DNA of 64,000 bases from Thermoplasmata archaeon (GCA_034667725.1 JAXDQS010000010.1:96001-160000), one strand, 5' to 3'; counted from the first letter of the stretch, positions 22,958 through 53,389 are shown. Translations and numbers: made by a program. The notes: generated from the sequence alone by a model not told the origin.

Positions 22958-23470
22958 CGAGCATGGATTCGCTCAGATTCAGAGGGTTCCCACAGAGGTC
23001 TGTGCATTTTTTGGCTAGGCCCAGCCAACTCCAAAGGCAGGGTCTGTGGAATCTAGCACCCGTCGGGCCCTGATTCCCTCCGATTCGGAAGATGCCACAG
23101 ATCATCTGTGGAATTTTGGCTAGGCCCTGCCAACTCTAAAGCCAGGGTCTGTGGAATCTGTGTGCGTCGGGCGCCCGACGAGCACTGATTCCCTCAGATT
23201 CGGAAGATTCCCACAGACCCTATGTGGAATTCTGTTCCTAGGCCCCGCCAGAACCAAAGCCAGGGTCTGTGGAATCGGTGTGCGTGGGGCCCTGACGAGC
23301 ACTGATTTGCACAGATTCGGAAGATTCCCACAGGCCATCTGCGGAATTTTCTAGCTAGGCGCCGCCACATCCAATGTCGGGGTCCGTGGAATCTGTGTGC
23401 GTGGGGTCCCTGACGGGCACCGATTCCCAGATTCGGAAGATTCCCACAGAACTCTGTGGAATCTGTGTCC
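22958..23470 (+). repeat. Family A array 1: ~4.5 tandem ~118-bp palindromic units
   Basis: Recurring GCACYGATT..CAGATTCGGAAGATTCCCACAGA-N2-4-TCTGTGGAATT...CTAGGC...GGGTCTGTGGAATCTGTGTGCGT; unit starts 23182, 23299, 23417. Confidence 0.95.
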
Positions 23471-23554
23471 CGGCGGGCATTGGCGGACGGTCGTCGGTGT
23501 TTCAGGGGGGTTCCAGCACCGTTTTGAAGGGCACCGGTGTGGCGCGCGCCGTCC

Positions 23555-25204
23555 ATGGTCGCGGCCCAGTACGTGATCGCTGCTGAAACCCACAAGCGCC
23601 GTGGCCTGTCGCGTTGGCTCACCACCACCGACCACAAGGAGATCGGCCTGATGTACCTCTGGGCCGGCTTCGTGTTCTTCATCCTGGGCGGCATCGCGGC
23701 CCTCCTGATGCGCCTGGAGCTCTACTCGCCGGGCGAGCAGATGATCACGGGCGAGTCGTTCAACGAGCTGTTCTCGCTGCACGGCACCACCATGGTGTTC
23801 CTGTGGATCATGCCCGCCCTGGCCGGCCTGGGCAACTACTTCGTGCCCATCATGGTCAAGGCGAAGGACATGGCGTTCCCCCGCGTCAACGCCCTGTCGT
23901 TCTGGCTCATCCCGCCCGCGGGCATCCTGCTGTACCTGCCGCTCATCCTGTCCGGGATGCGCGCGGTCAACGTCACCTGGGTCGGCCACGCACCGCTCTC
24001 GACCATGACGCAGAACCCCGGCCTCGACATGTGGCTCCTGGCCTTGGTGCTGCTGGGCATCGCCTCCACGCTGGGCAGCGTCAACTTCCTCGTCACCATC
24101 TTCAAGATGCGCGGCCCCGGCGTCCACCTGCACAACATGCCGCTGTTCGTGTGGGCCCAGCTTGCCACCTCGATCCTGCTGGTGTTCTCGCTGCCCGTCG
24201 TCACCGTCGCGTTCGGGATGCTGCTTCTGGACCGCAACTACGGCACCCACTTCTTCACCGGCTCGGCCACGGCGGAGCCCATCCTGTACCAGCACCTGTT
24301 CTGGTTCTTCGGCCATCCCGAAGTGTACGTGCTCATCCTGCCGCTCATGGGCGTCCTCAACGAGGTCATCCCCAAGTTCAGCCGCCGCCCGGTCTTCGGC
24401 TACACCTCGATGGCCTACGCCATGCTGGGCATCGCCATCGTCGGCTTCCTGGTGTGGGCGCACCACATGTTCACCACGGGCATCAACCCCACCGTGCGCG
24501 CCGTCTTCATGTTCAACACGATGCTGGTCGGCGTCCCCACCGGCATCAAGGTGTTCAACTGGCTCTCCACCATGTGGGGCGGCCAGCTCAGCCTCAAGGC
24601 CCCGATGAAGCACTGCCTCGGCTTCATCTGGCTGTTCGTGATCGGTGGCATCACCGGCGTCATGCTGGGCGCCATCCCGCTCGACTACCACCTGCACGAC
24701 TCCTACTTCGTGGTCGCGCACTTCCACTACACCATGGTGGGCGGCGCCGTGTTCGGCATCTTCGCGGGCATCTACTACTGGTACCCCATGCTGGCCGCCG
24801 GCCGGATGTACAACGAGCGCCTGGCAACCTGGCACTTCTGGCTGATGTTCGCCGGCTTCAACCTCACGTTCTTCCCGCAGTTCGTGATGGGCCTCTACGG
24901 GATGCCGCGCCGCATCTTCGACTACGACGGCAACATCCCGCACCTGGAGACGCTCAACCAGCTCTCGACCGTCGGCGCCTTCATGATCGCCGCCTCGATC
25001 GCGGTGTTCCTCTACAACGTCGCCTACAGCCACGCCAAGGACCTCCGCGTCACCCGCGACCCCTGGGGCGGCGCCCGCCACATCGAGTGGAAGCTGTGGG
25101 AGGAGGGGCGCGTCGTCCTCGGCCAAGGCCTCATCACCGACCACGAGCCCGAGCCCCTGCACGTGCAGGAGGCCCGCCGGCTGCGCGAGCTGGAGGCGGC
25201 CTAG
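23555..25204 (+). CDS. coxA: Cytochrome c oxidase subunit I (A1 type)
   Basis: TTDHKEIG, HGTTM, FWFFGHPEVY, VWAHHMF, HDSYFVVAHFHY, GMPRR. Confidence 0.97.
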   Translation: MVAAQYVIAAETHKRRGLSRWLTTTDHKEIGLMYLWAGFVFFILGGIAALLMRLELYSPGEQMITGESFNELFSLHGTTMVFLWIMPALAGLGNYFVPIMVKAKDMAFPRVNALSFWLIPPAGILLYLPLILSGMRAVNVTWVGHAPLSTMTQNPGLDMWLLALVLLGIASTLGSVNFLVTIFKMRGPGVHLHNMPLFVWAQLATSILLVFSLPVVTVAFGMLLLDRNYGTHFFTGSATAEPILYQHLFWFFGHPEVYVLILPLMGVLNEVIPKFSRRPVFGYTSMAYAMLGIAIVGFLVWAHHMFTTGINPTVRAVFMFNTMLVGVPTGIKVFNWLSTMWGGQLSLKAPMKHCLGFIWLFVIGGITGVMLGAIPLDYHLHDSYFVVAHFHYTMVGGAVFGIFAGIYYWYPMLAAGRMYNERLATWHFWLMFAGFNLTFFPQFVMGLYGMPRRIFDYDGNIPHLETLNQLSTVGAFMIAASIAVFLYNVAYSHAKDLRVTRDPWGGARHIEWKLWEEGRVVLGQGLITDHEPEPLHVQEARRLRELEAA

Positions 25205-26113
25205 ATGTCCATCTCGGTCCAGCGCGGCGAGGCCGTGGCCGCCGGCGGCCCCGAGCACGCCCAGCCCCATGAGATGCACCTGCCGCACGGCTCCTGGTGG
25301 CCGTTCATCCTGGCGGTCGCGATGGCCCTTCTGGGCATCGGCGTCCTGGTGTTCGGCAGCGGCTACAAGTCCTCGATGCACAAGGACATCGACCCCCTGA
25401 GCGGCATGGAGGTCGGCGAGGCCTACCGCCACTGGGGCGAGACCTACGTCGGCCTCGGCGTGCTCGTCCTCGGCGTCCTCGCGGTCGTCGGCGCGCTGGC
25501 CGGCTGGTTCGTCCAAGACCACAAGTGGTGGTGGCAGAACGTCGGCACCGGCACCCACATCCCGAAGGTCGGCGCCCTGCTGTTCATCAGCTCCGAGATC
25601 TTCCTGTTCGGCGCGCTGTTCGCGAACTACTTCACCTTCCAGAGCCTCAACGCCGGCCACTGGCCCGACGCCGAGCTCGAGCTGCCGCTCCTGAAGACCG
25701 GCATCTTCACGCTGTTCCTGTTCGCCTCGTCCGGCACCATCCACATGGCCGAGCACAACCTCAAGCGCGGCCACCACAAGGCGTTCGTCAACTGGTGGGG
25801 CCTCACCATCCTGCTGGGCGCGGTGTTCCTGGGCGGCCAGGTCATGGAGTACAGCAACCTCATCCACGAGGGCCACACCCTGGGCTCGTCGCAGTTCATC
25901 ACGGCGTTCTACATCCTGACCGGCGCCCACGGCCTGCACGTCTTCGGCGGCCTATGCCTCCTCCTGGTGATGTGGCTGCGCGCCCGCAAGGGCCAGTTCA
26001 CCCCCGAACGCCACGCCGGCCCGATGGTCGCCAGCATGTACTGGCACTTCGTCGACATCGTCTGGGTGTTCGTGTTCAGCATCCTCTACGTCGCGCCGCT
26101 GTTGGGGCACTAG
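25205..26113 (+). CDS. coxC: Cytochrome c oxidase subunit III
   Basis: FISSEIFLFGALF, FYILTGAHGLHV, YWHFVDIVW. Confidence 0.93.
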   Translation: MSISVQRGEAVAAGGPEHAQPHEMHLPHGSWWPFILAVAMALLGIGVLVFGSGYKSSMHKDIDPLSGMEVGEAYRHWGETYVGLGVLVLGVLAVVGALAGWFVQDHKWWWQNVGTGTHIPKVGALLFISSEIFLFGALFANYFTFQSLNAGHWPDAELELPLLKTGIFTLFLFASSGTIHMAEHNLKRGHHKAFVNWWGLTILLGAVFLGGQVMEYSNLIHEGHTLGSSQFITAFYILTGAHGLHVFGGLCLLLVMWLRARKGQFTPERHAGPMVASMYWHFVDIVWVFVFSILYVAPLLGH

Positions 26114-26341
26114 ATGGGCGAGCGCGCCAAGGTCCGCAACCTGGTGCGGTTCGTGGCGCTGTTCGTCGCCGTTCCCACCCTCACCATCGGCGCCACCATG
26201 GCGGTCTGGGACCCGGTCAGCCACAGCTGGCATATGGTGCTGTTCCTGATCCTGGGAGCCGCCGCGCTGGGCGTCATGGCGCTGGCGCCCCGGCTGGCGG
26301 CGCGATGGGTGCCCGAGGACGCCGACGCAGAAGGCGCCTGA
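26114..26341 (+). CDS. Small 2-TM protein abutting coxC (possible oxidase small subunit)
   Basis: Starts directly after the coxC stop; two hydrophobic helices. Confidence 0.55.
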   Translation: MGERAKVRNLVRFVALFVAVPTLTIGATMAVWDPVSHSWHMVLFLILGAAALGVMALAPRLAARWVPEDADAEGA

Positions 26342-26364
26342 AGCCACGGACGGACGGCCACCGC

Positions 26365-26579
26365 CCGACTGGACCACGGGTCCACAGAGCGCCCCTCCTG
26401 GGCACAGATTCCACAGAATCCAGGCTTTGGATCTGGCGGGGCCTAGGAACAGAATTCCACAGACCGTCTGTGGGAATCTTCCGAATCTGGGCGAATCGGT
26501 GCCCGTCGGGCGCCCGACGCACACAGACTCCACAGACCTCGGTGAGAATCTTCCGAATCTGAGCGAATCAGTGCTCGTC
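26365..26579 (-). repeat. Family A array 2 (~1.5-2 units, reverse orientation)
   Basis: TCTGTGGGAATCTTCCGAATCTG, CGTCGGGCGCCCGACG, terminal CCGACTGGACC. Confidence 0.9.
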
Positions 26580-26671
26580 TGGGAGCATGGCCGCCATGTT
26601 CCCGCTTCGGCCATTCCCGCCGTCATCCGGCTACAAGAACGGTTAAACCCGCGAAACCAGCGCTCGGGGCC

Positions 26672-27844
26672 ATGCGCAACGGCGTCCTCGCCCTCGCCGC
26701 CTTGGCTTGCATGGCCTTGGCCGGCTGCACGGGCGGCACCGACGAGCCCACCCTCACGACCCAGGCCGTTCGGCAACTGGACGAAGGCGTCGACCGCGTG
26801 GACGTCCCGCTGCTGCCCCGCGAGGCGCCTGCCCCCGGCACCCGCACGACGGCCGCGCCCCCCGAGTGGCGCCTGGGCGAATTCTGGGAGTACGCGATCA
26901 CCGATCACTTCGCGGGCAACACCATCACGACGACCCGGGTCGTGGCCGGCACGGACGGCGGCAACTACCTCGTCGGCTTCCCGCTGGAGGCGTTCGACAA
27001 TGACGTGCTCATCTTCCACATGCCCGGCTACGGCGACGTCAGCCAGGCGGACCTGAGCTTCGAGGCCCACGACGTCGTCTATGCGCCCTTGAAGTTCCCG
27101 CTCACGGCCGGCGAGTCCTGGCCCACCGCGTGGGAAGGCATCTCCGGCACGGCCACCGTCCTGTCCGCGACCCCGCAGCAGGCGGAAGTGCGCATCGTCG
27201 CCGACAACGGCGGCTACGACATCACCGCCACCTACGACGCCGAGATGGGCGAGATCATCAAGGTCGCCTACCCCGGCTACATGGACTACGAAGTCACCCG
27301 GCACGGCTACGGCTACACGGGCCTGGTGCGCGTCCCGCACGCCCACGACCTGGTGTTCCAGAACGGCCGCCTCGGCCCGTGGGACATTCAGCAGAACATC
27401 GTCCAGGACGCCGTCCCCGCCGACCTGCAGGACACGGTGGAGGTCGGCCCCGGCTACGACCGCCTCGCCTTCACCATCATCGTGGGCGGCGGCCCAAGCC
27501 TCCTGGTCCCCGAGGCCCAAGGCACGCCCAGCGGCGGCTACTTCAAGGAGACCGTCACCGCGCCCAACGGCACCGTGTTCATGCTCGAGCAACTGCCCAA
27601 CGAGACCGGCCTCAAAATCCAGTTCTTCGGCACCGGCGACCCCGTCGGCACCTGGACCCTCGACCACCAGGCCGGCGGCGCAGGCATCGTGCTGACCGAA
27701 GGCATCGGCTACCACTCCATCGACATCGAGCTGCCAAGCGGCTGCGTCCTGCGGTCCCAGAACGCCCTGCACCACACCACGCTCTGCAAGGCCGACGAGC
27801 AGGGCCAAGCCCAAATGGCGGCCACCACGTCCACGGCGGCGTGA
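26672..27844 (+). CDS. Hypothetical lipoprotein
   Basis: ALAGC lipobox; PEWRLGEFWEY motif, beta-rich; GGTTAAA box upstream. Confidence 0.75.
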   Translation: MRNGVLALAALACMALAGCTGGTDEPTLTTQAVRQLDEGVDRVDVPLLPREAPAPGTRTTAAPPEWRLGEFWEYAITDHFAGNTITTTRVVAGTDGGNYLVGFPLEAFDNDVLIFHMPGYGDVSQADLSFEAHDVVYAPLKFPLTAGESWPTAWEGISGTATVLSATPQQAEVRIVADNGGYDITATYDAEMGEIIKVAYPGYMDYEVTRHGYGYTGLVRVPHAHDLVFQNGRLGPWDIQQNIVQDAVPADLQDTVEVGPGYDRLAFTIIVGGGPSLLVPEAQGTPSGGYFKETVTAPNGTVFMLEQLPNETGLKIQFFGTGDPVGTWTLDHQAGGAGIVLTEGIGYHSIDIELPSGCVLRSQNALHHTTLCKADEQGQAQMAATTSTAA

Positions 27845-28245
27845 CGGGCCCGCTCAACCTCAAGCGCCACCCCAAGGCCGTCCCCATCCAGGACGTGGCG
27901 GGCCACCCCGCCTTCGCCGAGGGGATTCGCCTGTTCAACCACGGCGAGCACTGGCACGCCCACGAGGCGCTGGAGCCGGTCTGGATGGGCCTGGAAGGCG
28001 ACGACAAGCTGGCCGTCCAAGCCATCATCATGGCGGCCGCGATGCTGGTGCAGTACGGCAAGCGGATCGAGCGCGGGGTCGCCAACCACTGGGCCAACGT
28101 CCGGGCTCGCGCCGAAGGCCGTGCGCCGACCTGGGGCGTGGACTACCCGGGGCTGCTGCGGCAGCTGGAGCCGTACGCGGAGGCGGCGGCGCGGCACGAG
28201 TGGGGGCTGGACCCGAAGGCCGTGCAGATTGCCTGGAGCCGCTAG
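27841..28245 (+). CDS. DUF309 family protein
   Basis: GIRLFNHGEHWHAHEALEPVW; GTGA overlap. Confidence 0.85.
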   Translation: MTGPLNLKRHPKAVPIQDVAGHPAFAEGIRLFNHGEHWHAHEALEPVWMGLEGDDKLAVQAIIMAAAMLVQYGKRIERGVANHWANVRARAEGRAPTWGVDYPGLLRQLEPYAEAAARHEWGLDPKAVQIAWSR

Positions 28246-28246
28246 G

Positions 28247-28663
28247 CCGACTGGACCCAGATTCCACAGAGTTCTGTGGGAATCTTCCGAATCTGAGGGA
28301 ATCGGTGCCCGTCGGGCGCCCGACGCACACAGATTCCACAGACCCCGACATTGGATGTGGCGGCGCCTAGCTAGAAAATTCCACAGATGGTCTGTGGGAA
28401 TCTTCCGAATCTGTGCAAATCAGTGCTCGTCAAGGGCCCCACGCACTCCGATTCCACAGACCCTGGCTTTGGATTTGGCAGGGCCTAGCCAAACTTCCGC
28501 CGAGTTCTGTGGGAATCTTCCCAATCTGTGAAAATCAGTGCCCGTCCGTTTTCCCGACGCACACAGATTCCACAGACCCTGGCTTTGGTCCTGGCGGGGC
28601 CTAGGAACAGAATTCCACAGATGGTTTGTGGGAATCTTCCCAATCTGTGCGAATCGGTGCTCG
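28247..28663 (-). repeat. Family A array 3 (~3.5 units, reverse orientation)
   Basis: Four copies of TGTGGGAATCTTCC(G/C)AATCTG; begins 2 nt after the DUF309 stop. Confidence 0.95.
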
Positions 28664-28744
28664 ACTCGTTCAGGCCGGCATGAACCGGTTCGGCCACCCC
28701 TGCCCCAACCCTGAACAACCCGCAAGCTTGGCCCCCCTCCGTCC

Positions 28745-30520
28745 ATGACGGTCGTCCCAGGGCACCTGACGCACCGGCAGATCCTGCTGGTGTTCTCCGG
28801 CCTGATGCTGGGCATGTTCCTGGCCGCGCTCGACCAGACCATCGTGTCGGCAGCGCTTCCCACCATCGCGGCCGACCTCGGCGGCTTCGACAAGATCACC
28901 TGGGTCGTCACCTCGTACCTGCTGACCAGCACCGTCACCATCCTGCTGTGGGGCAAGCTGTCGGACATCTACGGCCGCAAGGTCATGTTCCAGGCCTCGA
29001 TCGGCACCTTCCTCGTCGCCTCGGTCCTGATCGGGCTTGCCCCGGACATGACGTGGCTCATGGTCGGCCGCGGCCTGCAAGGGGTCGGCGCCGGCGGCAT
29101 CATGAGCCTGGCGTTCGCCATCATCGGCGACATCCTAAGCCCCCGCGAGCGCGGCAAGTACATGGGCCTCATGGGATCGGTGTTCCTGCTCGCCAGCGTC
29201 CTCGGCCCCCTTCTGGGCGGGCTCATCGTCGACCACCTCTCCTGGCGCTGGATCTTCTACGTCAACCTCCCCATCGGCATCCCGGCCCTGGTCGTGACCG
29301 GCATCGTGCTGCGGCTGCCGTTCGCCAGGCACCCCCAGAAGGTGGACGTCGCCGGCGCCATCCTGCTGACCTTGGGCTCGTCGATGCTGATCCTCGCCCT
29401 CGTGTGGGGCGGCGACCTGGCGCCCTGGGGCGGCTACACGCTGCGCTGGCTCCCCGGCGTCGGCGACCCCACGGGCGCGGCCCCCGGCTTGGACGCTTTC
29501 CTCGCCGACTGGTTCGTGAGCCTGCTGTTCGCCGGCGCGGTCCTGGTGCTTGGCGTGTTCACGGCCGTCGAGGCCCGCCGCGCCCAGCCGCTGCTGCCGT
29601 TGTCGCTGTTCCGCGACCGCACCTTCGCCATCTCGTCGGCGGTGTCGTTCGTCGTGGGGGCCGCGATGTTCGGCGGCTTCGTGTTCCTGCCGACCTACCT
29701 GCAGATCTCGACCGGCGTCTCCGCCACCATGTCGGGCTTCCTGCTGCTGCCGATGGTGCTCGGCCTCATGCCGATGTCCACCGCGTCGGGCATCATCATC
29801 AGCAAGACCGGCCGCTACAAGTGGTGGCCCTTGGCCGGGCTGCCCATCACCGCCGTCGGCATGCTGCTCTTGTCCCAGATCGCGCCGGACACGCCGCAGG
29901 CCTACGTCGCGCTCGGGATGTTCCTGCTGGGCGCCGGCATCGGGATGGTGATGCAGGTCATGGTGCTCGCCGTCCAGAACGCCCTCGACATGCGCCAGAT
30001 GGGAGTGGGCACCGCCGCGAACAACTTCATGCGCAGCATGGGCAGCGTCATCGGTGTCGCCTTCTTCGGCGTCGTGTTCAACCAGCACATCCGCGCGGCC
30101 CTCAAGGACCTCGCCGCCCAAGGCGTCGACCCCGCCGTCGTGGCCGAGATCCTCCGGAGCGACCCCGCGAAGCTGCGCGACTTGGCGCCGGCCATCCGCG
30201 ACCCCGTGGCCGCCGCCGTGGCCAGCGGCGTCGGCGACGTGTTCCTCTACGCCGTCCCGCTCGTGCTGCTCGCCCTCGTGCTGACGTTCTTCCTCAAGGA
30301 GGTCCCGCTCCGGTCGACCCGCAACGTCGGCGCCGCGGCCGCCATGGAGGGCGCGGAGGCCGCCATGGTCGAGGCCGCCGAGGAGACCGTGCCCGTGGCG
30401 CCTGCCGTCCCGGTCGCGCGGCCGGCGCCGCTGCCGGCCCACCGGCCCGTACCCAAAGGCCTGAGCATCGAGGAAGTGCAGCGCCGCGTCGACGCGCTGC
30501 CGCCGCCGCGCCGCCGCTAG
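28745..30520 (+). CDS. MFS drug:H+ antiporter, 14-TM DHA2 (EmrB/QacA-like)
   Basis: LAALDQTIVSAALPTI, GKLSDIYGRK, RGLQGVGAGG, GPLLGG..WRWIFYVNLPIG. Confidence 0.93.
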   Translation: MTVVPGHLTHRQILLVFSGLMLGMFLAALDQTIVSAALPTIAADLGGFDKITWVVTSYLLTSTVTILLWGKLSDIYGRKVMFQASIGTFLVASVLIGLAPDMTWLMVGRGLQGVGAGGIMSLAFAIIGDILSPRERGKYMGLMGSVFLLASVLGPLLGGLIVDHLSWRWIFYVNLPIGIPALVVTGIVLRLPFARHPQKVDVAGAILLTLGSSMLILALVWGGDLAPWGGYTLRWLPGVGDPTGAAPGLDAFLADWFVSLLFAGAVLVLGVFTAVEARRAQPLLPLSLFRDRTFAISSAVSFVVGAAMFGGFVFLPTYLQISTGVSATMSGFLLLPMVLGLMPMSTASGIIISKTGRYKWWPLAGLPITAVGMLLLSQIAPDTPQAYVALGMFLLGAGIGMVMQVMVLAVQNALDMRQMGVGTAANNFMRSMGSVIGVAFFGVVFNQHIRAALKDLAAQGVDPAVVAEILRSDPAKLRDLAPAIRDPVAAAVASGVGDVFLYAVPLVLLALVLTFFLKEVPLRSTRNVGAAAAMEGAEAAMVEAAEETVPVAPAVPVARPAPLPAHRPVPKGLSIEEVQRRVDALPPPRRR

Positions 30521-30521
30521 G

Positions 30522-31013
30522 CTAGAACTTCGCCCGCACCCGCTTGGCGGGCACGCCGGCCCAGAACTCGCCGGGCGGGACGTCGCGCAGCACGACCGAG
30601 CCCGCGCCCACGACGGCGTCCTCGCCGACCGCGACGCCGGGCAGGATGGTGCAGTTCGCCCCGATGGACGCCCGCGCCCCGATGGCCACGTCGCCCAACT
30701 GGTAGGAGCCGTGGGTGTAGCCGTGGCACAGGATGGTGGTGTTGTAGCCCACGATGGCGTCGTCGCCGATGGTGATGCGGCCCGGGAACAGCACGTCGAG
30801 CTGGGCCGACAGGCCGAGGCTCACGTGGCGCCCGACCTTCGCCCCGCTGCGGCGCACCATCCAGTTCTTGAGCGCGAACCACGGCACCGTCTTGCTGCCC
30901 GCCAGCCAGAGGTAGTTCCACGCCACGCGCCACCGGCTCACGTCGCGCCCGAAGTAGTGCAGGCTGTTGCGCGGCCCGCGGCTCGGGCGCACCTCGACGC
31001 GCGGGTGCGGCAT
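30522..31013 (-). CDS. Hexapeptide-repeat acyltransferase (YvoF-like)
   Basis: IGARASIGANCTILPGVAVGEDAVVGAGSVV..D...WAGVPAK. Confidence 0.88.
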   Translation of the reverse strand: MPHPRVEVRPSRGPRNSLHYFGRDVSRWRVAWNYLWLAGSKTVPWFALKNWMVRRSGAKVGRHVSLGLSAQLDVLFPGRITIGDDAIVGYNTTILCHGYTHGSYQLGDVAIGARASIGANCTILPGVAVGEDAVVGAGSVVLRDVPPGEFWAGVPAKRVRAKF

Positions 31014-31825: not shown

Positions 31826-31857
31826 GCGGCGGCGAACCCCGCCTTCGGCTTCAAGCT

Positions 31858-32009
31858 TGGCCGGGGGCCGCCGTGCGCGTGAGCGCACAGGACGAGCGTG
31901 CCGGCCCGCGCGTGTAGCGGCGCGCCGGCGCGAGGAGCGGCCCCCTCGTCGGCTGGGGGTCCGGGGCGCGCAGCGCCCCGGCGCCATCGGATGGCCGCCA
32001 GGCCATCCG
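31858..32009 (+). repeat. Family B structured element, copy 2 (core 31858-31984 plus hairpin 31988-32009)
   Basis: 122/127 identical to the reverse complement of 13027-13153. Confidence 0.9.
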
Positions 32010-32011
32010 CT

Positions 32012-32269: not shown

Positions 32270-32338
32270 GGACGCAGGGGCTCCGGGATTGGGCGCGAAC
32301 CTGGAGCGGCTTACTTAACGGTTGGCGATTCAGGTCGC

Positions 32339-33679: not shown

Positions 33680-34135
33680 TCACCGGCCGACGGGGTGGTC
33701 CTCGGCGCGCTGCCGGACGCCGCGCAGCACCCGCAGCACCACCGCCAGGTCGTCTTCGGGCACGCCGCGGAACAGCTCGGCCATGCCGGCCTCGACAGCG
33801 GCGCGCGCCCGCTTCGCGCGGGCCCTGCCTTGGGCGGTGAGCGACACCAGGCTGACGCGCTTGTCGGCGTCGTCCTTGCGCCGCCGGGCCAGCCCCTCGC
33901 GCTCCAGGCGGTTCATGACGCCCGTGAGGTTGGCGGCGGTGGCGCCCTCCAGCTCGGCCAGGCGCCCCAGCGGCAGCTCGCCGTACTCGTAGAGGAACCA
34001 CACCACCCGTGACTGGGCGGGGGTGATGCCGGCCTCTCGCAGCGCCCGGCCCATGTGGGTGCGCATCCCCCACAAGGCGCCGTGCAGGGCTTCGCCCACG
34101 TCGCTCGGGGACGGGGCGGTCGGCGTCTTTGCCAC
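33680..34135 (-). CDS. MarR family transcriptional regulator
   Basis: GITPAQ, LAELE....ANLT..MNRLEREGL, DKR...LTAQG. Confidence 0.88.
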   Translation of the reverse strand: MAKTPTAPSPSDVGEALHGALWGMRTHMGRALREAGITPAQSRVVWFLYEYGELPLGRLAELEGATAANLTGVMNRLEREGLARRRKDDADKRVSLVSLTAQGRARAKRARAAVEAGMAELFRGVPEDDLAVVLRVLRGVRQRAEDHPVGR

Positions 34136-34223
34136 GCGCCCCCAGCGGCGGCGGCTCTCAAAGGTCTTCCCCGCGATTTCCTCAATGCCTAAACTATTTG
34201 CAGGCCCGGCGGTCTCCCCGCGC

Positions 34224-34979
34224 ATGGAAGGGTCGCAGCTTGCCAGCCTCCTGCTTGGCCTCCTGAGCGGCGGCTTCTTCGCCCTCGTGGGCTGGACCAT
34301 CCACCGCCGGCCCGTGAGCTCCGAGGTGGTGGCGGCCCGCGACGCCTTCGTGCTGTGGTGGGTGCTGCTCGGCGTCCTCAGCGTCCTGGGGGTCGCCCTC
34401 AACGTCGCCGTGGTCCTGGGGCTGCGCGACCTGGCGCTGCTGACGACGCTGCTGTTGGCGCTGCTCCTGCTGCTGTGCGCCGCGTTCTGGAGCCTTCTGT
34501 GCTACCTGCTCTACCTCTACCTCAACACCAACCGGCTGCGCTGGATCCTGGCCGTCGCCTACACCATCCTGTTCTTCGGCCTGGCCTACTTCGTCCTCTA
34601 CCAGCAGCCCATCGGCGTCGAGGAGACCCGCTGGGGCTTCAAGTTCGACTACGCCCGCGAGCCCAGCGGCCCGGCGGCCCTGGTGGCGGGGCTCCTGTTC
34701 CTGGTGCCGGTCCTGCTCGGCGCCGCCGGCTACCTGAGCCTGTACCGCAAGGTGGACAACCCCGTCCTGCGCCGGCGCATCCTGATCGTGGGCTGCAGCA
34801 TCCTGGTCTGGTTCGGCAGCAGCCTGCCCGCCACCTCGGACCGGGATTTGGGGGAGAACGAGACCTGGCAGCTCGCGAGCCGCCTCATCGGGCTGGCCGC
34901 CACGGCCGCCATCTACTACGCGTACGTCGGCCTCAAGCCCAAGACGGAGACGCCAGCGATGCCGAGGCACAACCCCTGA
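34224..34979 (+). CDS. Stand-alone 7-TM membrane protein (HisKA_7TM-like sensor module)
   Basis: About 7 hydrophobic helices with no cytoplasmic output domain. Confidence 0.65.
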   Translation: MEGSQLASLLLGLLSGGFFALVGWTIHRRPVSSEVVAARDAFVLWWVLLGVLSVLGVALNVAVVLGLRDLALLTTLLLALLLLLCAAFWSLLCYLLYLYLNTNRLRWILAVAYTILFFGLAYFVLYQQPIGVEETRWGFKFDYAREPSGPAALVAGLLFLVPVLLGAAGYLSLYRKVDNPVLRRRILIVGCSILVWFGSSLPATSDRDLGENETWQLASRLIGLAATAAIYYAYVGLKPKTETPAMPRHNP

Positions 34980-34995: not shown

Positions 34996-35299
34996 GACGA
35001 GCACTGATTCGCCCAGATTGGGAAGATTCCCACAGACAATCTGTGGAATTTTTTGGCTAGGCCCCGCCAAATTCAAAGCCAAGGTCTGTGGAATCTGTGT
35101 GCGTCGGGCACCCGACGGGCACCGATTCCCCCAGATTCGGAAGATTCCCACAGATCATCTGTGGAATTTCTGGTTAGGCCCCGCCAAATCCAAAGCAAGG
35201 GTCTGTGGAATCTGTGTCCAGTCGGCGGGAGACGCGACGGGCACTGATTCCCTCAGATTCGGAAGATTCCCACAGACCTCTTTGGAACTTGTCCGGTCG
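34996..35299 (+). repeat. Family A array 4 (~2.5 units)
   Basis: Unit starts 35001, 35119, 35241; lies between convergent genes. Confidence 0.95.
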
Positions 35300-44347: not shown

Positions 44348-44375
44348 GGCGCTTGGCCCGGACGGTGGATCAACC

Positions 44376-44972: not shown

Positions 44973-44999
44973 CTTGAGGCGCCGACCACTGGCAAGGAC

Positions 45000-45953
45000 A
45001 TGGCGTTTGCCGTCCACAGCCCGGCGCTGTTCGTGGGGGGCCTGCTGCTGCTGGCAGCGGTTCCCCTGGCAGCCCAGGGCGAGTGGCGCGTGTGGGCTTT
45101 CGACCACCCGGTGAGCAACCTGGAGTGGGACGAAGGGGGCCACGGGCCCGCCTTCGCCGCCGGCGGCTCCGGTGGCGGCGGCACGCATTCCGGTGGGGGC
45201 TCCGGTGGCCGCAGCACACATTCCGGTGGAGGCTCCGGTGGCGGCGGCACCCATTCCGGCGGTGGAGGCAGCGGTGGGGGCGGGGGCGGCAGTGGCACCC
45301 ACCCGAGCACCGGCACCGCCACGCCGGCCAAGGGCGGCGGCAGCGGCGCAGACACGCCCGCCACCGGCTCCGGCCTCACGGCGGGCTCCGGCGGGACCGG
45401 CCCTGGCGGCTCCGGCGGCCTGCTGGGCATCCTCGGCTCCGGCGGCCAGGGCTCCGGCGGCGGCTGGGGGGGCTCCCAGGGCGCCGGCTGGGGCTCGTTC
45501 GCCGCTGGCTTTGCAGCCTTCTTCATCGGGTTGGCCGCTGCCTTCGCCGCCTTCGCCAAGGCGCTCGCGGCGTTCGCGGCCGGCCTCTCGAAGATGTTCG
45601 CGGGTTGGGTTTTCCTCATTCCCGGCCTGCTTGCCATGCTTCTGTGGACATACTTCGGCATTCTGGGCGGCCTGCTGGCGGCCACGGCCATCGTGGTCTT
45701 CGCGCTCGTGGCCAACGCCGCCCAAGTCCCGGCCGTGGCCGCGGCGGCCGCCCCGCCGCCGGAGCTCGGCGTGCCCGTGGCAGACGAGGGGTGGGTGCCC
45801 CCGCAGGACGCCGCGGTGCCCGGGGAGGCGGCGGCGAAGAAGGGGTCCGCCAAGAAGGCGACCGCGACGAAGGCCACCGCCAAGAAGGCCGCCACGAAGA
45901 AGGCCAAGGGCACGGCCAAGACAGCACCCAAGAAGGCCGCCCGCAAACCGTAG
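45000..45953 (+). CDS. Membrane protein with Gly-rich repeats and a Lys/Ala-rich C-terminal tail
   Basis: GGGSGGGGTHS repeats, TM region, AKKATATKATAKKAATKK tail. Confidence 0.6.
   Translation: MAFAVHSPALFVGGLLLLAAVPLAAQGEWRVWAFDHPVSNLEWDEGGHGPAFAAGGSGGGGTHSGGGSGGRSTHSGGGSGGGGTHSGGGGSGGGGGGSGTHPSTGTATPAKGGGSGADTPATGSGLTAGSGGTGPGGSGGLLGILGSGGQGSGGGWGGSQGAGWGSFAAGFAAFFIGLAAAFAAFAKALAAFAAGLSKMFAGWVFLIPGLLAMLLWTYFGILGGLLAATAIVVFALVANAAQVPAVAAAAAPPPELGVPVADEGWVPPQDAAVPGEAAAKKGSAKKATATKATAKKAATKKAKGTAKTAPKKAARKP
45162..45305 (+). repeat. In-frame 33-bp tandem repeat encoding GGGSGGGGTHS (3-4 imperfect copies)
   Basis: GGCTCCGGTGGC...CATTCC recurs with 33-bp period. Confidence 0.7.
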
Positions 45954-45995
45954 TCGCGGCAACGGTCAAGACCCACCCGGCCCCATGGCGCCCTG

Positions 45996-47468: not shown

Positions 47469-48252
47469 GCGCGAGCGCCTTCGCCAGCACCGTGTACTCC
47501 CACGGCGACACCTCGGCCGCCGTCCGCGCCGCGCCGTTGACCTGGGCGATCGCCTCGGTCACGGCCTGCGGCGGCACGCCGAGCGTCTCCGCAAGCGGCG
47601 CCAGGCTGTGCCGCAGTGTCCGCGCCTTCGCCCCCCATGCCGCCTCCAGCACGGTGTCCAGCATCGCGAGGTCGAGCGCCTCGTCGCGCGGCTTGGGCCG
47701 AATCTCGACGACGCAGCACGGCACCGCCGGCGGCGGGTCGAAGTCCTTGCGGCGCAGCGGGAACAGCACCTTGGCCTTGGCGCGCGCCGCCACCTGCACC
47801 GTGAGCCGGCCGTAGCCCTCCTGCTTCGGCCCCGCCGTCAGCCGCTCCGCCAACTCCTGCGGCATCACCAGGACGGCGTGCCCGAAGCCATGGTCCAGCA
47901 GGCGGCGCAGCAGCGCAGGCAGGATGCGGAACGGCGGGTTCGAGACCACCGCGTCGATGCGCGGCGGCAAGCGGACCGCGAGCGCGTCGCCCTGCACGAC
48001 GCGGACGCCCGGCAGCGCCATGCTCGCAAGGCGCCCGGCCCGGTCGGCGTCGCGCTCGACCGCGAGCACCGAGCCGCCCGGCTGCACGGCCGCCGCCACC
48101 GCCCGCGTGAGGGCGCCCGTGCCGGCGCCCACGTCGAGCGCGTGCAGGCCCGGCGCGAGGCCGGCGGCGGCCACCAGCCGCGCCACGACCTCGGGGCTCG
48201 CCGACAGGAAGTGGGCGCCCTCCGCGCGGGTCTCGGGGTCGGTGCGGGGCAC
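47455..48252 (-). CDS. rsmA: rRNA adenine dimethyltransferase family (RsmA/KsgA-like)
   Basis: GAHFL, DVGAGTGALT, GDAL, VSNPPF, QELAERL, YGRL, FDPPP. Confidence 0.75.
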   Translation of the reverse strand: MPRTDPETRAEGAHFLSASPEVVARLVAAAGLAPGLHALDVGAGTGALTRAVAAAVQPGGSVLAVERDADRAGRLASMALPGVRVVQGDALAVRLPPRIDAVVSNPPFRILPALLRRLLDHGFGHAVLVMPQELAERLTAGPKQEGYGRLTVQVAARAKAKVLFPLRRKDFDPPPAVPCCVVEIRPKPRDEALDLAMLDTVLEAAWGAKARTLRHSLAPLAETLGVPPQAVTEAIAQVNGAARTAAEVSPWEYTVLAKALALTTC

Positions 48253-48302
48253 GGCCGCGCCACGGGCGAAGTCCTCATCCCCTTTGCCCTCCTGACCGCC
48301 GC

Positions 48303-49979
48303 GTGGACGCGCTCGAGGCCGCCCGCCGCCTGGCCGACGCCGCCTTCGAGGCGTGGCGGCGCATCCAGGACGACGCCGACCGGCACGCCAAGGTCGGCCT
48401 GGGCGCGGGCGGCAACCTCACCAGCCGCGCCGACGCCGTGCTGGAGGCCGCCATCCTGGAGGAGGCGCGCCGGCTCGGCATCGCGGTGCTGTCCGAGGAG
48501 GCCGGCCTCGTGGACATCCCGGACTCCAAGTGGCTCGCCGTGGTGGACCCGCTCGACGGCAGCCGCAACGCCGGCCGCGGCATCCCGTTCCACTGCACCA
48601 GCGTCGCCATCGCCCCGCGCGCCGGGACCCTCAAGGACCTGGAGGCCGGCGTGGTGCGGAACCTCGTCACCGGCGACACCTACGCCTGCCGCAAGGGCGG
48701 CGGCGCCACCGTCAATGGCAAGCCGCTGGCGCCCGCCGCGTTCGACCCCGAGGAGGTCATGGTCGGCGTCATCGCAGACTACTCCGAGACCGAGATCGAC
48801 GAGGCGCACGCCAGCCCCGACCACCACATCCGCGACCTGGGGTCGGCGGCGCTGGAGATGTGCCTCGTCGGCACCGGCGCCCTCGACGCCTTCATCGTCC
48901 GCAAGCCGTGGCTCCGGGTCATCGACCTGGCCGCCGCGACCCTGTTCATCCGCGAGTGCGGCGGCGCCGTCCACGATCCGATGACGGGCCTGGAGCTGGA
49001 GGTCCACCTCGATCTCGCGGTGCGCTGCGGCGTGCTTGCGACCCACGACGCCGAGGCGCGGCAGGCGGTCTCCACCACCCGCATCCGGCCCGTGCGGACG
49101 CCGGCGGGCAAGATGACCGGCCCCGTCACGCCGGGCCAGGACACGGCCCTCACCTGGGCCATCGTCGGCAAGGGCGGCATCCCGCACATCCGCCGCGAGG
49201 CGATGTGGCTGCGGCAGGCGCTCCTGGACCGCGGCCAGCACGTCCTGTTGGAGGAGGACTTGGCGAAGGCGACCGGCGAGAAGGGCCACACCCTCGACCA
49301 GCTCGACCGCGACGCCGACCTGTTTTTGACCGTGGGCGGCGACGGCACCATCCTGATGGTCCTGCACGCCACCGACAAGCCGATCTTCGGCGTCAACGCG
49401 GGCGCCATCGGGTTCCTCGCCGAGGTGGAGCCGCCGCAGGCCGCGCTCGGCATCGACCAGATTATCCGCGGCGACTACCGGGTCGAGCAGCGCGACAAGC
49501 TCCAGGCCTGGCTCGACCAGCGCCGCCTCCCGGACGCCACCAACGAGGTCACGCTGCAGACCAGCCGCATCGCCAAGCTCATCCGCTTCACCATCACCGT
49601 CTCGGGCGAGGTGCTGGACACGCTGCGCGGCGACGGCATCATCGTCAGCACCGCGACGGGCAGCACTGGCTACGCCATGAGCGTCGGCGGGCCCCTCGTC
49701 CATCCCCTCGTCCACGGCACCGTGCTGGCCCCGATCGCGCCGTTCCGCCTCAGCGCGCGGCCATGGGTCGTGCCCTCCGACGCCGTGATCGAGCTGACCC
49801 TGCTGGAGCGCGACAGCAGCCAAGGCGAGCAGCACGCCCGCGTCGTCGTGGACGGCCAGCACGGCCTCGACGTCCGCCCAGGCCAGACCGTCCGCATCAT
49901 GCCGAGCCCCCGCAAGGCCCGCTTCATCCGCCTCGGCTCCGGCTACTACGAACGGGTCCGCACCAAGCTCACGAGGTGA
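48303..49979 (+). CDS. Bifunctional inositol-monophosphatase-like NADP phosphatase / NAD kinase
   Basis: N-terminal SEE, VVDPLDGS, RDLGSAAL; C-terminal GGDGT, GVNAG.IGFL, NE, TATGSTGY..S.GGP. Confidence 0.92.
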   Translation: MDALEAARRLADAAFEAWRRIQDDADRHAKVGLGAGGNLTSRADAVLEAAILEEARRLGIAVLSEEAGLVDIPDSKWLAVVDPLDGSRNAGRGIPFHCTSVAIAPRAGTLKDLEAGVVRNLVTGDTYACRKGGGATVNGKPLAPAAFDPEEVMVGVIADYSETEIDEAHASPDHHIRDLGSAALEMCLVGTGALDAFIVRKPWLRVIDLAAATLFIRECGGAVHDPMTGLELEVHLDLAVRCGVLATHDAEARQAVSTTRIRPVRTPAGKMTGPVTPGQDTALTWAIVGKGGIPHIRREAMWLRQALLDRGQHVLLEEDLAKATGEKGHTLDQLDRDADLFLTVGGDGTILMVLHATDKPIFGVNAGAIGFLAEVEPPQAALGIDQIIRGDYRVEQRDKLQAWLDQRRLPDATNEVTLQTSRIAKLIRFTITVSGEVLDTLRGDGIIVSTATGSTGYAMSVGGPLVHPLVHGTVLAPIAPFRLSARPWVVPSDAVIELTLLERDSSQGEQHARVVVDGQHGLDVRPGQTVRIMPSPRKARFIRLGSGYYERVRTKLTR

Positions 49980-49984
49980 GGGGC

Positions 49985-50527
49985 GTGGGATGGTTCGGCC
50001 GCAACAAGACCCGCCGCTTGGCCGTGCGGGAGGGCTACGAGAAACTGCCCGAGGAGGAATGGACCGAGGACGAGGTCGACCACCACCTCCAGACCTGCTC
50101 CGAGGACGAATACTGGGCCTACTGGGACCGCTGGAGCCTGGACACTTACGAGCACCCCACCGTCCGCAAGATCCGCAAGTCGGCGCTCGACATGGGCTTC
50201 GAGGCCGCGCGCGCCAGCTTCCCCCAAGAGTTCGGCTGCATGCTCCGGGTCGAGAAGGACACCATCACCGAACTCGTCCTGGTCCCCGGCACCATCCAAG
50301 GCGACGAGCACGCCATCTTCGCCCTGGGCAACCTCCCGGTGGACCGCAGCATCCAAGGCACGCTGCACAGCCACCCCGACCCGCATCCCTACCCAAGCGA
50401 CGCCGACTTCGAATTGTTCGAGCACCACGGCACCATCCACCTGATCCTCGCGCAGCCGTACGAGGGCGAGGCGTGGCGGGCGTACGACCACACTGGCGTG
50501 CCGACCTACTTGGACGTCGTTGACTGA
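49985..50527 (+). CDS. JAMM/MPN+ metalloprotease with acidic N-terminal extension
   Basis: PQEF...GTLHSHP....PSDAD; GTG start at 49985. Confidence 0.88.
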   Translation: MGWFGRNKTRRLAVREGYEKLPEEEWTEDEVDHHLQTCSEDEYWAYWDRWSLDTYEHPTVRKIRKSALDMGFEAARASFPQEFGCMLRVEKDTITELVLVPGTIQGDEHAIFALGNLPVDRSIQGTLHSHPDPHPYPSDADFELFEHHGTIHLILAQPYEGEAWRAYDHTGVPTYLDVVD

Positions 50528-50531
50528 CCCA

Positions 50532-50828
50532 CGGGCACCCGACGAGCACCGATTTTCACAGATTCGGAAGATTCCCACAGAGGTCTGTGGAATTTTTGGC
50601 TAGGCCCAGCCAAATCCAAGCAAGGGTCTGTGGAATCTGTGTGCGTCGGGCACCCGACGGGCACCGATTCCCCCAGATTCGGAAGATTCCCACAGACGAT
50701 CTGGGGAATTTTGGCTAGGCCCCTCCAACTCCAAAGCCAGGGTCTGTGGAATCTGTGTGCGACGGGCACTGATTCCCTCAGATTGGGAAGATTCCCACAG
50801 GCGGTCTGTGGAGTCTGGGTCCAATTGG
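50532..50828 (+). repeat. Family A array 5 (~2.5 units)
   Basis: Three GATT(C/G)GGAAGATTCCCACAG cores; begins 5 nt after the JAMM stop. Confidence 0.95.
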
Positions 50829-50870
50829 CAGTGGCGCAGGTTGAAACCTCCCAGCCCGCTCCAGTGACCG

Positions 50871-51851
50871 ATGGAGGCCTGGGAGCCATGGGTCGCCGCC
50901 GCCTTCGCCCCCGCCGCCGTGTGGGTCCTCTGGCGCTTCCAGACCTGGTCGGTCGAGTTCTTGCGCTGGCGCCTCGTCAAGCTGGTGGGCCACGCCAACT
51001 GGCTGTACGCGACGGTGAGCTTCTTCGGCGTCCTGCTGCATGAGCTGAGCCACGCCTCGGTGCTGCTGCTCTCCGGCCACGGCGTGAAGGAGTTCCGCAG
51101 CGGCATGGAGTCCGGCCACGTCCTGCCCGCCCGCACGCGCACCGGGTTCGTCGGCACGCTCTCGTTCTTGGTCGCGGCGCTGGCGCCCATGTTCATCCCG
51201 CCGCTGCTGGTCCTCCTTGGCGTCGTCTTCCTGGTGGACCGCGGCGTCGTGGACCTGCTGCCCGGCGGCGACGGCCTCCTGGGCGCCTGGGAAGGCCTGC
51301 GCGTCGTCCTCGTCGAGTTCCCCGTCCGCTTCGCCCAAGCCGTCGCCCGCCTCGACCTCGCCCACTGGCCCCACCTCGTCGTCCTGCTGCTCCTCTTGCT
51401 CGGGATGCCGGCGGCCCGCCCCAGCCACATCAAGCGCAGCCGGTTCCACGGCGGCTCCGAAGGCGACGTCGCCGTCCTCCGGGCCCGCATCCGGCACAAC
51501 CCGGTCCCGTTCCTGCTGTTTTTGGCCCTCCTCTACGCCGCCTACCTCACGGTGCGCGTCTGGCTGCCCGAGGCCTACTGGGGCGCGTTCCAATGGGTCT
51601 GGGCCGTCGCCGCCACCGGCGTCCTCCTGTCCGCGTTCGGCGCCGCCTGGTGGAGCCTCGCCGCCATGAACGCCCGCACCAGCCTGCTGTTCGCCTGGGT
51701 GCCGTTCCTGCTGTTCGTCGCCGTCGAGACGGCGCTGCGCGTCGTGCGCCCCACCGACCCCATGTGGGCCAACGCGGCGGCCGTGGCGGCATGGGCGGGC
51801 GCGACGGCGGTGCTGCGGTTCATGTTCCCGCGCCGGGTGCGCTCCTTCTGA
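50871..51851 (+). CDS. Membrane protein with HExxH (M50-like metalloprotease)
   Basis: GVLLHELSHA, GHV, ALAP in a multi-TM protein. Confidence 0.7.
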   Translation: MEAWEPWVAAAFAPAAVWVLWRFQTWSVEFLRWRLVKLVGHANWLYATVSFFGVLLHELSHASVLLLSGHGVKEFRSGMESGHVLPARTRTGFVGTLSFLVAALAPMFIPPLLVLLGVVFLVDRGVVDLLPGGDGLLGAWEGLRVVLVEFPVRFAQAVARLDLAHWPHLVVLLLLLLGMPAARPSHIKRSRFHGGSEGDVAVLRARIRHNPVPFLLFLALLYAAYLTVRVWLPEAYWGAFQWVWAVAATGVLLSAFGAAWWSLAAMNARTSLLFAWVPFLLFVAVETALRVVRPTDPMWANAAAVAAWAGATAVLRFMFPRRVRSF

Positions 51852-51890
51852 AAGCGAACGCTTTTGCCGCGCGCCCGAGGTCTTGCCGCG

Positions 51891-52631
51891 ATGGGGCGCC
51901 TCCACCTCTTGCCCGGCGAGCGCGAGGAGCTCCGCCTGCGCCCCGCCGCCCTGAGCCGCCTCCCGGACTACGCCGTGGCCTTGGCCCCCGCGGCCGGCGC
52001 GGGCCTGCTCTGGCTTGCGACCCTGGCGCCCAGCTGGCGCCCGCCGGCCGCCGACGCGCCGTGGCTGCACCAAATCTACGGCACGCCGTTCGCCGTGGCG
52101 CTCTACGCCCTCGTGGTGCTGGCGGCCGCGGGCGCTGCGCACCTGCTGCTGCGCCGCAAGGCGTGGGGCTTGCTGGCCGCCGTCGGCGCGATGCTCTGGC
52201 TTGCGGCCGGGGTCGTTGCGTTCCCCGACGTGTCCGCCGAAACGCGCATCCCGGTCCAGCTTGCGTGCCTCAGCGTGCCGGCGCTGGCGTGGGTCGAGAC
52301 GGTGCGCCGCACGACCCGCTACGCCGTCACCAACCTCCGCCTCGTCGTCCAGGTCGCGCTGCCGCGCGCGGCCCAGGGCGCGTTCCTGCACGAGGATCTA
52401 GTGGACGTGGACGGCAGGCGCGGCCTCGGCGACACCGGCACCATCACCGCCGTGCGGCGCGGCACCGAGGCGCCCCGCGAGCTGCACCTGGCCGGCGTGC
52501 GGCCCTACAAGCGGGTGCTGGCGGCCGTCGAGCTGTTGGTGCAGAAGGCGACCCAGAGCGAGGCGCTGCGGCGGCAGGCGGGCATCGACCGGCGCGTCGG
52601 CGAGGCGCTGGCGGCGCTGCAACGGCATTAG
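51891..52631 (+). CDS. Membrane protein with bacterial PH-like domain
   Basis: LLPGE N-terminus, TMs, then TRYAVTNLRL...GDTGTI. Confidence 0.65.
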   Translation: MGRLHLLPGEREELRLRPAALSRLPDYAVALAPAAGAGLLWLATLAPSWRPPAADAPWLHQIYGTPFAVALYALVVLAAAGAAHLLLRRKAWGLLAAVGAMLWLAAGVVAFPDVSAETRIPVQLACLSVPALAWVETVRRTTRYAVTNLRLVVQVALPRAAQGAFLHEDLVDVDGRRGLGDTGTITAVRRGTEAPRELHLAGVRPYKRVLAAVELLVQKATQSEALRRQAGIDRRVGEALAALQRH

Positions 52632-52678
52632 CGACCCGCGCCACCACCGTTAAGGAGCAGGGCGGCGTCGCTGCGACC

Positions 52679-52993
52679 GTGCCCTTCTGCCCGAACTGCA
52701 AGAAGCTGGTCTATCCCGTCAAGGGCCAGATGACCTGCAAGAACCCCGCCTGCAACTGGACGGGGGAGGCGGCCGAGTCGGGCTCCATCCTGCGCAGCAC
52801 CGCCGGCGAGGGCACCCGCAAGCGCGTCATCCTGGAGGAGAAGGTCGAGGCCCGTCCCGAACAGGTCATCACCTGCCCGAAGTGCCAGCACAACAAGGCC
52901 TACTTCCACCTCATGCAGACCCGCCGCTCCGACGAGCCGCCGACGCAGATCAACGAGTGCGTCAAGTGCGGCCACTCCTGGCGCGAGTACTAG
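52679..52993 (+). CDS. tfs: Transcription factor S (TFS/RpoM)
   Basis: FCPNC...C....C and CPKC..QTRRSDEP...CVKCGHSWREY with intact DE; GTG 29 nt after CCGTTAAGG. Confidence 0.95.
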   Translation: MPFCPNCKKLVYPVKGQMTCKNPACNWTGEAAESGSILRSTAGEGTRKRVILEEKVEARPEQVITCPKCQHNKAYFHLMQTRRSDEPPTQINECVKCGHSWREY

Positions 52994-52999
52994 CTTCTC

Positions 53000-53389
53000 G
53001 ACGCGCGCCGATTCCCGCAGACGGTCTGTGGAGTTTTTCGCCACGCCCCGCCAGAATCAAAGCCAGGGTCTGTGTGCGTCGGGGAAACGGACGGGCACTG
53101 ATTTTTTCCCTGATTCGGAAGATTCCCACAGACTATCTGTGGAATTCTGTTCCTAGGCCCCGCCAACTCCAAAGCCAGGGTCTGTGGAATCTGTGTGCGT
53201 GGGGCACCCGACGGGCACCGATCTTCACAGATTGGGAAGATTCCCACAGATGATCTGTGGAATTTTTGGCTAGGCCCTGCCAGGTCCAATGTCGGGGTCT
53301 GTGGAATCTGTGTGCGTCGGGCGCCCGACGGGCACTGATTCCCTCAGATTCGGAAGATTCCCTCAGAGCTTGTGGAATCCTTGTCCAAG
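53000..53389 (+). repeat. Family A array 6 (~3.5 units)
   Basis: Same unit; begins 7 nt after the tfs stop; lies between convergent genes. Confidence 0.95.

Follow-up and report, generated by a model that had tools for sequence, protein, structure and literature searches.

Tandem palindromic arrays in a Thermoplasmatota archaeon and a PDDEXK_3 nuclease gene enclosed by similar arms

Bacteria offer well-described cases of dispersed palindromic repeats with an enzyme of their own. In Proteobacteria, repetitive extragenic palindromic (REP) sequences, arranged as bacterial interspersed mosaic elements (BIMEs) or as REP doublets forming hairpins (REPINs), are paired with the RAYT transposases of the Y1/HUH type (PMC2817692, PMC3116915), and since 2025 the hairpin repeats NTS/SRM, which are the dRS3/NIME of Neisseria, have been known to be paired with the Ssn GIY-YIG single-strand nucleases (PMC11893778). 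We found no archaeal system of dispersed palindromic repeats with a dedicated enzyme described in the literature that was searched. Here we analyse a stretch of 64,000 nt ("the window", G000:C10:96001-160000) of a Thermoplasmatota metagenome-assembled genome (MAG) of 2.32 Mb in 26 contigs, 90% complete (G000), in which a preliminary description, made from the sequence alone, had noticed six intergenic arrays of a palindromic unit, called family A, and had likened them to BIMEs, REPINs and NIMEs. Arms like those of family A enclose a small PD-(D/E)XK nuclease gene (PF13366, TIGR04256; PDDEXK_3 or GxxExxY) in the genus of this archaeon and in distant bacteria. Family A combines arms of this cassette family without the gene and was inserted after speciation; with moderate confidence we read it as a species-specific, BIME-like derivative of a PDDEXK_3 hairpin cassette, which the nuclease would have spread in trans.

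The likeness to REP/RAYT lies in the repeats, which are imperfect short palindromes in at least 100 copies, intergenic, mostly at gene 3' ends and combined in mosaic modular arrays, and in a single-copy partner gene that is embedded in the same repeats and whose paralogues are paired with different ones. The candidate partner is, however, a nuclease of ~150 aa of the PD-(D/E)XK type and not an HUH tyrosine transposase, no GTAG is present, the arms consist of tandem 9-10-nt words and not of a simple GC-rich stem, modules of 70 and 118 nt follow each other head to tail, and the host is an archaeon. With Ssn/NTS the locus shares a small nuclease gene that stands alone with a hairpin repeat on either side, the presence of this repeat in hundreds of gene-less copies that are clustered non-randomly around genes, and repeat variants that track nuclease variants. 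It differs in that the nuclease is PD-(D/E)XK and not GIY-YIG, in that only the CGTC start of a junction palindrome recalls the NTS, whose consensus is absent, and in that activity on single-stranded DNA hairpins has been demonstrated for Ssn, whereas the present nuclease is known from its sequence and a model. Like miniature inverted-repeat transposable elements (MITEs), the arrays are non-autonomous, gene-less and 70-500 bp long, with imperfect inverted ends and with filled and empty sites between relatives, but they are tandem composites of hairpin units and not single units bounded by terminal inverted repeats.

The PDDEXK_3 gene and its arms

The exact 21-mer of the unit had no match in 185,579 species genomes and none in metagenome contigs, and a DNA search of 40 relatives with the whole unit returned two matches only, both at chance level; judged by these searches, the composite unit is species-specific. 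The two matches pointed to a conserved 15-mer core. This 15-nt arm (CACAGATTCCACAGA / TCTGTGGAATCTGTG, with at most one mismatch) was found in 13 of 13 genomes of the genus, in 1-167 copies each and in 130 copies in G000, and elsewhere in the family in one genome of a sister genus (G019) and in none of the 18 others, which cover the other nine genera. The reversed sequence, used as a control, gave 0-1 matches.

The window contains no mobilising enzyme, as had been said of it. RAYT (Y1_Tnp, PF01797) had 0 matches in the 90% of the genome that is assembled, with control matches in six genomes, and TnpB (PF07282) and IS110 (PF01548) were likewise without a match in G000 while control genomes gave matches. 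No small GIY-YIG gene of the Ssn kind was found in G000, the sole PF01541 match lying in a UvrC-sized open frame of 945 aa, and the core hairpin of the consensus lacks a GTAG tag at its foot. With neither a Y1/HUH gene nor the tag, membership in REP/RAYT was not upheld, and the comparison with Ssn/NTS (dRS3/NIME) failed for want of a small GIY-YIG gene; of the proposed likeness to BIMEs and REPINs, the organisation stood (high-copy intergenic imperfect palindromes in mosaic arrays) and the enzyme did not. A blastn search with an array in phage and plasmid collections gave no match. The only gene that was seen to share the array ends is the PDDEXK_3 nuclease, Y1, TnpB-TNB and IS110 having been looked for and the DDE families not scanned.

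G000 has a single PF13366 gene, at C5:135539-135874 (- strand) on a contig outside the window, which scores 119 bits with this profile and 128 bits with TIGR04256. The motifs GxxExxY, D and ExK are intact and the positions of E, D and ExK are conserved. Its stop codon lies inside the first unit of an array of four units with exact CACAGATTCCACAGA/TCTGTGGAATCTGTG arms, and these units align to positions 30-106 of the family A profile. The structure predicted for the protein (pLDDT, predicted local distance difference test, 88.8) has a PD-(D/E)XK fold, with Cas4 and lambda exonuclease as its closest class, and the fold search gave generic PD-(D/E)XK relatives only (TM 0.45-0.51). No sequence homologue was found in the PDB and no match with PADLOC, and the literature on GxxExxY, PF13366 or PDDEXK_3 that we found consists of one classification paper and incidental mentions, with no described function.

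Each of the 13 genomes of the genus has PF13366, and none of the 19 genomes from the family's other ten genera does. Inverted repeats with a score of at least 15 frame 19 of the 26 PF13366 genes of the genus, compared with 1 of 101 shifted controls, and the arms that frame them are made of two to three tandem words of 9-10 nt. These words vary between paralogues (CACAGAT, CGCAGAT, CACCGAT, CACGAAT, CACGGAA, CGCGGAT, CACTGAA and others). The G000 protein groups weakly (73/87) with those of two congeneric loci, G006 L179 and G007 L166, both of which have arms of CACAGAT words, and GAATCTGTGTCCAG, the 3' terminus of the family A arrays, closes the right arm of L166. Related genes with the same word stand in non-homologous flanks in three pairs (L179/L166, L159/L177 and L169/L164). 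Arms with the word CACGAAT are most numerous in the two genomes that have CACGAAT-armed genes (239 and 128 copies), and the copy number of CACCGAT arms shows a similar trend with its cognate gene. Outside the archaea, 6 of 10 PF13366 homologues from bacterial phyla have inverted arms of C[AG]C[AG]GA words with a score of at least 14, the shifted controls giving 1 of 36.

On our reading the nuclease would recognise arms made of word repeats, most probably as the stem of a hairpin or a cruciform. Its cutting would start copying or repair events by which gene-less copies could spread in trans, in a manner analogous to that of RAYT with REP/REPIN or of Ssn with the NTS/SRM hairpins, and the insertions would persist mainly at gene ends, where the harm is expected to be small.

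Structure, distribution and age of the arrays

An iterated nhmmer profile seeded with one unit recovered all six arrays of the window with borders that differ by no more than ~40 nt from those first given, and five of the six were detected by Tandem Repeats Finder (TRF) with periods of 115-118. We counted 19-21 units in the window, where ~20 had been claimed, and the 21-mer GATTCGGAAGATTCCCACAGA has 19 occurrences at up to three mismatches, compared with 0.00 in dinucleotide shuffles. The AT-richness that had been noticed is real, the GC content being 56.7% in the arrays and ~71% in the genome. Nothing indicates that the arrays arose in assembly: in run X1, Logan contigs pass from the flank into array 1 without a difference, and inner array pieces are reproduced exactly, with an array depth 20-50x that of the flank. 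These contigs end inside the arrays, and the support from X1 is not independent because X1 may be the source sample. The sequencing runs that contain the sequence are soil metagenomes.

The unit had been described as a triple palindrome of ~118 bp. The three palindromes are all seen in the sequence, namely the core (ATTCCCACAGA-N2-4-TCTGTGGAAT), TTGGC..GCCAA and a GC-rich junction (GTGCGTCGGGC/GCCCGACGAGCAC), and so is the period, but 118 bp is not the basic unit, since it resolves into a unit of ~70 nt and an insert of ~45 nt that repeats TCTGTGGAAT. The short unit (~70-75 nt) reads GACGRGCAC-TGATTCCCTCAGATTCGGAAGATTCCCACAGA, a loop of 2-4 nt, TCTGTGGAATCTGTGT and the GC-rich junction, and the long unit (~118 nt) is a short unit with the additional ~45 nt, which are TTTTGGCTAGGCCCCGCCAAATCCAAAGCCAGGG and the second TCTGTGGAAT. 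The left arm is built of tandem 9-10-nt words ending in GATTC (CACTGATTC-CCTCAGATTC-GGAAGATTC-CCACAGA) and the right arm is the inverted 15-mer TCTGTGGAATCTGTG; both arms are thus runs of 9-10-nt words (xxxxGATTC / CACAGATTC) in inverted orientation, phased at 9-10 nt. The ends of an array are imperfectly inverted, as seen when the 5' GACGAGCACTGATTC is set against the reverse complement of the 3' GAATCTGTGTCCAGTC, and CGTC opens the junction palindrome (CGTCGGGC/GCCCGACG), a similarity with NTS and the CGTC-tagged REPs that goes no further. Arrays of the window have a number of long units followed by one terminal short unit, with the 3' end ...GGAATCTGKGTCCAG, and genome-wide the orders of short (S) and long (L) units are mosaic, for example SLS, LSS, LLLS and SSSS. 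A box in the long units (AATTTTTGGCTAGG, at 23005-23020 of the window and at equivalent places) is similar to the TATA-like box CCGTTTTGAAGG found 5' of COX1 (23519-23535), which is conserved as TTTTGTAGG in congeners, and from this likeness in sequence promoter-like sites might be present in the long units.

Family A extends beyond the window: the nhmmer profile found 114 units in 41 arrays in G000, in agreement with the suggestion of a dispersed, mosaic, intergenic family of genome-wide extent. The density of about one array per 10 kb that had been noted for the window is, on the other hand, that of a local hot spot, the genome average being ~1 per 57 kb: six arrays in 31 kb were equalled in 8 of 5000 random placements, and the 368-kb contig C1 has no array of at least 100 bp, as happened in 26 of 5000 random placements. 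The orientation of the flanking genes was called from local frames, and both flanks could be called for 23 of the 41 arrays, with 18 partly uncalled; 11 of the 23 are convergent, 8 tandem and 4 divergent, so that convergent pairs are over-represented. The closest relative of a unit is usually in a different array. Unit 4 of array 1 and unit 3 of array 3 are 97% identical, two long units of array 3 are closest to units 3 and 4 of array 1 (90% and 97%), and the two arrays have 87% identity over 404 nt. Because the nearest relatives of units and ordered variants are shared between loci in this way, local tandem amplification alone is insufficient to explain the family.

The comparison with congeners establishes that the arrays were inserted into intergenic DNA after the split from these species, and bears out the expectation that they behave as insertions, since arrays 1 and 5 have orthologous sites that are empty. 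The divergent spacer between COX2 and COX1 has ~80-130 bp in ten congeners, and in G000 it holds the 520-bp array 1 between two retained TATA-like boxes, both outside the array. In G007 and G002 the stop and start codons of the genes that flank array 5 overlap (ATGA or TGATG), G009 and G006 have the two genes abutting, and in G000 they are 343 bp apart (window 50525-50871); array 5 has split a gene pair that was likely translationally coupled. A contig of a relative in X4 that joins 22938 to 23511, as an empty site of array 1 would, had low depth and was too weak to count. The orthologous spacers of arrays 1 and 5 carry hairpins of different word families in G002 (GGATTCCGGGGATTTCGGGG..., L011 ~4090-4190) and in G011 (arms of CGCAGAG words; L189, in the spacer after the JAB-domain gene). 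Different hairpins in the same spacers of different species indicate repeated, independent insertion, and these spacers may be recurrent landing sites. Insertion points and target-site duplications could not be defined with congener spacers that are too diverged. Hairpins are also found inside a coding sequence, in a likeness to the Rickettsia palindromic elements (RPE): a synthase gene of G002 (L003, G002:C26; frame 25..3027, + strand) has in-frame hairpins of CACAGA/CACCGA words in two linkers that join carrier-protein domains (~1455-1530 and an earlier one), with the peptides ..PQIAQMTQIQGGSVKSVESVV.. and ..PQIAPIPQMQPQSVTSVESVV..

Explanations for the spread of family A

Several observations weigh against a spread of family A by the nuclease. 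At least 35 simple hairpins of CACGGA words, and a few of CACCGAG words (for example C1:146359, C1:345459 and C3:171718), are also present in G000, and the CACGGA hairpins have no matching gene there, the single PF13366 gene being of the CACAGA type with an upstream arm of its own that is degenerate. CACAGA arms do not track the gene in G002, where 167 copies are accompanied by no CACAGA-armed gene that we could find, and in G019, whose 280 contigs amount to 83% completeness, TCTGTGGAATCTGCG is found ten times (for example at L142) with no PF13366 match, so that either the repeats exist there in the absence of the gene or the assembly has a gap. Three other pairs of genes that share a word (L177/L162, L161/L165 and L160/L181) are orthologous loci, and the deep nodes in the tree of 29 nucleases are poorly resolved. 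Relatives are not independent, so the co-occurrence of gene and motif in the genus counts phylogenetically as one event, and all genomes compared are MAGs, 65-94% complete. The spread by the nuclease is what we infer.

The alternative that survives best, although we judge it unlikely, is that of a domesticated nuclease with repeated target sites, as for Ssn and NTS, in which the hairpins would be the places in the genome that the nuclease recognises or cleaves in the service of the host, for example in modulating recombination, DNA uptake, repair or chromosome organisation, and the repeats are spread by recombination and gene conversion and not by transposition that the nuclease drives. A single-copy gene in G000 and the vertical retention of some cassettes at the three orthologous pairs of loci just named are in its favour. 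So is the regional clustering of the arrays described above, NTS clusters being similar (PMC11893778), and so is the conservation of the arms with their phased words next to a hypervariable loop, for which we found 31 variants in 94 copies, with the left arm identical in 58 of the 94. The nuclease is not known to give the host a phenotype, and four features look instead like selfish spread: several paralogues per genome each with words of its own, cassettes of the same word in non-homologous flanks, different family members in the same spacer in different species, and the in-frame insertions in the G002 synthase gene.

Also doubtful, and ranked after it, is an origin with no dedicated enzyme, by which MITE- or satellite-like DNA was multiplied by slippage, unequal exchange, gene conversion or host functions, and the PDDEXK_3 gene is a passenger or a homing gene that landed in hairpin loops. 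The framing of the genes so far above the control level, the co-occurrence of gene and repeat at the level of the genus and an arm copy number that follows the cognate genes in two word families all argue against such an origin, and so does the position of a unit's nearest relative, which is usually in another array and not adjacent. Head-to-tail arrays do favour unequal exchange, though, and hairpin families with no cognate gene in the assembly exist in G000 (CACGGA), in G002 (CACAGA) and in G019 (the core motif), just as CGTC-tagged REPs have been reported without a dedicated transposase (PMC3733652).

We consider it very unlikely that the arrays are functional RNA elements, transcribed as small RNAs, mRNA-stabilising 3' hairpins or terminators and kept for that role. 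The predicted folds are strong (z = -6.6 for the + strand of array 4), a T-run follows the core hairpin in long units, and many arrays are placed just past stop codons, with 11 of the 23 called pairs convergent. Yet the - strand also folds well (z = -4.3), as any palindrome would, orientation is unbiased in tandem contexts (4 same versus 4 opposite), and array 1 is situated between divergent promoters. Covariation in the core stem is almost absent, the most variable pair having 1 compensated and 28 uncompensated changes, and with stem substitutions thus uncompensated there is no case for selection on RNA or single-stranded DNA pairing beyond the conservation of the arms. No Rfam family reached its gathering threshold over the whole window, a check that the preliminary description had proposed.

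Least probable of all, and hardly credible to us, is a classical system dependent on RAYT, IS200/IS605, IS110 or Ssn whose enzyme is missing from the 90%-complete assembly: the organisation is BIME-like, mobile genes often fail to assemble in an incomplete MAG and the junction palindrome begins with CGTC like NTS and CGTC-REPs, but the profiles for these enzymes matched control genomes and not G000, where the one GIY-YIG match is in the 945-aa frame, no GTAG marks the foot of the hairpin, and the 21-mer of the unit is absent from the species genomes and metagenome contigs searched.

The six arrays in place and the meaning of the pairing

The placement of the arrays between genes in divergent (COX2 and COX1, array 1), tandem and convergent arrangement was found as it had been described; the neighbours of arrays 1, 3, 5 and 6 were named with Pfam. 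Array 1 (22956..23475, + strand; TRF 23009-23466) was delimited by TRF, nhmmer and dissection of its units, and has four long (~118-nt) units, of which the first is degenerate, and a terminal short unit. It separates the divergent genes for a COX2-like protein (21537-22892, - strand) and COX1 (23537-25204, + strand). Array 2 (26402..26579, - strand) was seen with nhmmer, consists of one short and one long unit with a degenerate tail to ~26385, and is located downstream of the COX3 gene and a small open reading frame (ORF) and upstream of an ORF at 26672-27844.

The next four arrays were delimited by both TRF and nhmmer. Array 3 (28246..28665, - strand; TRF 28261-28660), with three long units and a terminal short unit, is placed between a DUF309-containing ORF that ends at 28245 and an MFS transporter gene (28745-30520). 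Two long units and a terminal short unit make up array 4 (34996..35299, + strand; TRF 34996-35287), which begins 17 nt past the stop codon of an ORF at 34023-34979, and also array 5 (50540..50825, + strand; TRF 50531-50769), which is directly preceded by a JAB-domain gene with its stop TGA at 50525-50527 and followed by a gene at 50871-51851. Array 6 (53010..53397, + strand; TRF 53069-53378) has a partial unit, two long units and a terminal short unit; a TFS zinc-ribbon gene ends before it at 52993, and a small ORF (53442-53726, - strand) follows, with PCNA next at 53925. The TFS zinc ribbon and PCNA encoded here mark the host as an archaeon. Elsewhere in the window, tandem repeats at 45165-45283 and 45826-45906 (33 nt in 3.5 copies, and 15/30 nt) are unrelated to family A and are probably coding low-complexity repeats.

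Taken with the palindromic systems of bacteria, these results point to a partnership of repeat and enzyme that appears to be unpublished and is comparable to REP/RAYT or Ssn/NTS. The locus offers a concrete pairing, with one small nuclease, one 15-nt arm and ~130 copies in a 2.3-Mb genome, and natural variants in specificity (CACAGA, CGCAGA, CACCGA, CACGAA and others) exist within a single genus. It is possible, although we advance this tentatively and with more doubt than our reading of family A itself, that PDDEXK_3/GxxExxY nucleases and word-repeat arms form a third nuclease-palindrome class beside RAYT/REP and Ssn/NTS, in archaea and many bacterial phyla, in which each lineage would read its own 9-10-nt word and drive gene-less copies that range from single hairpins to composite arrays of 118-nt units and in-frame inserts. 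If the nuclease does read these words, this would account for a widespread class of repeats that so far lack an explanation, and would provide a set of small nucleases with specificity for sequence or structure. A mode by which archaeal intergenic regions are remodelled would then also be clear, as in array 5, which splits genes that overlap in congeners.

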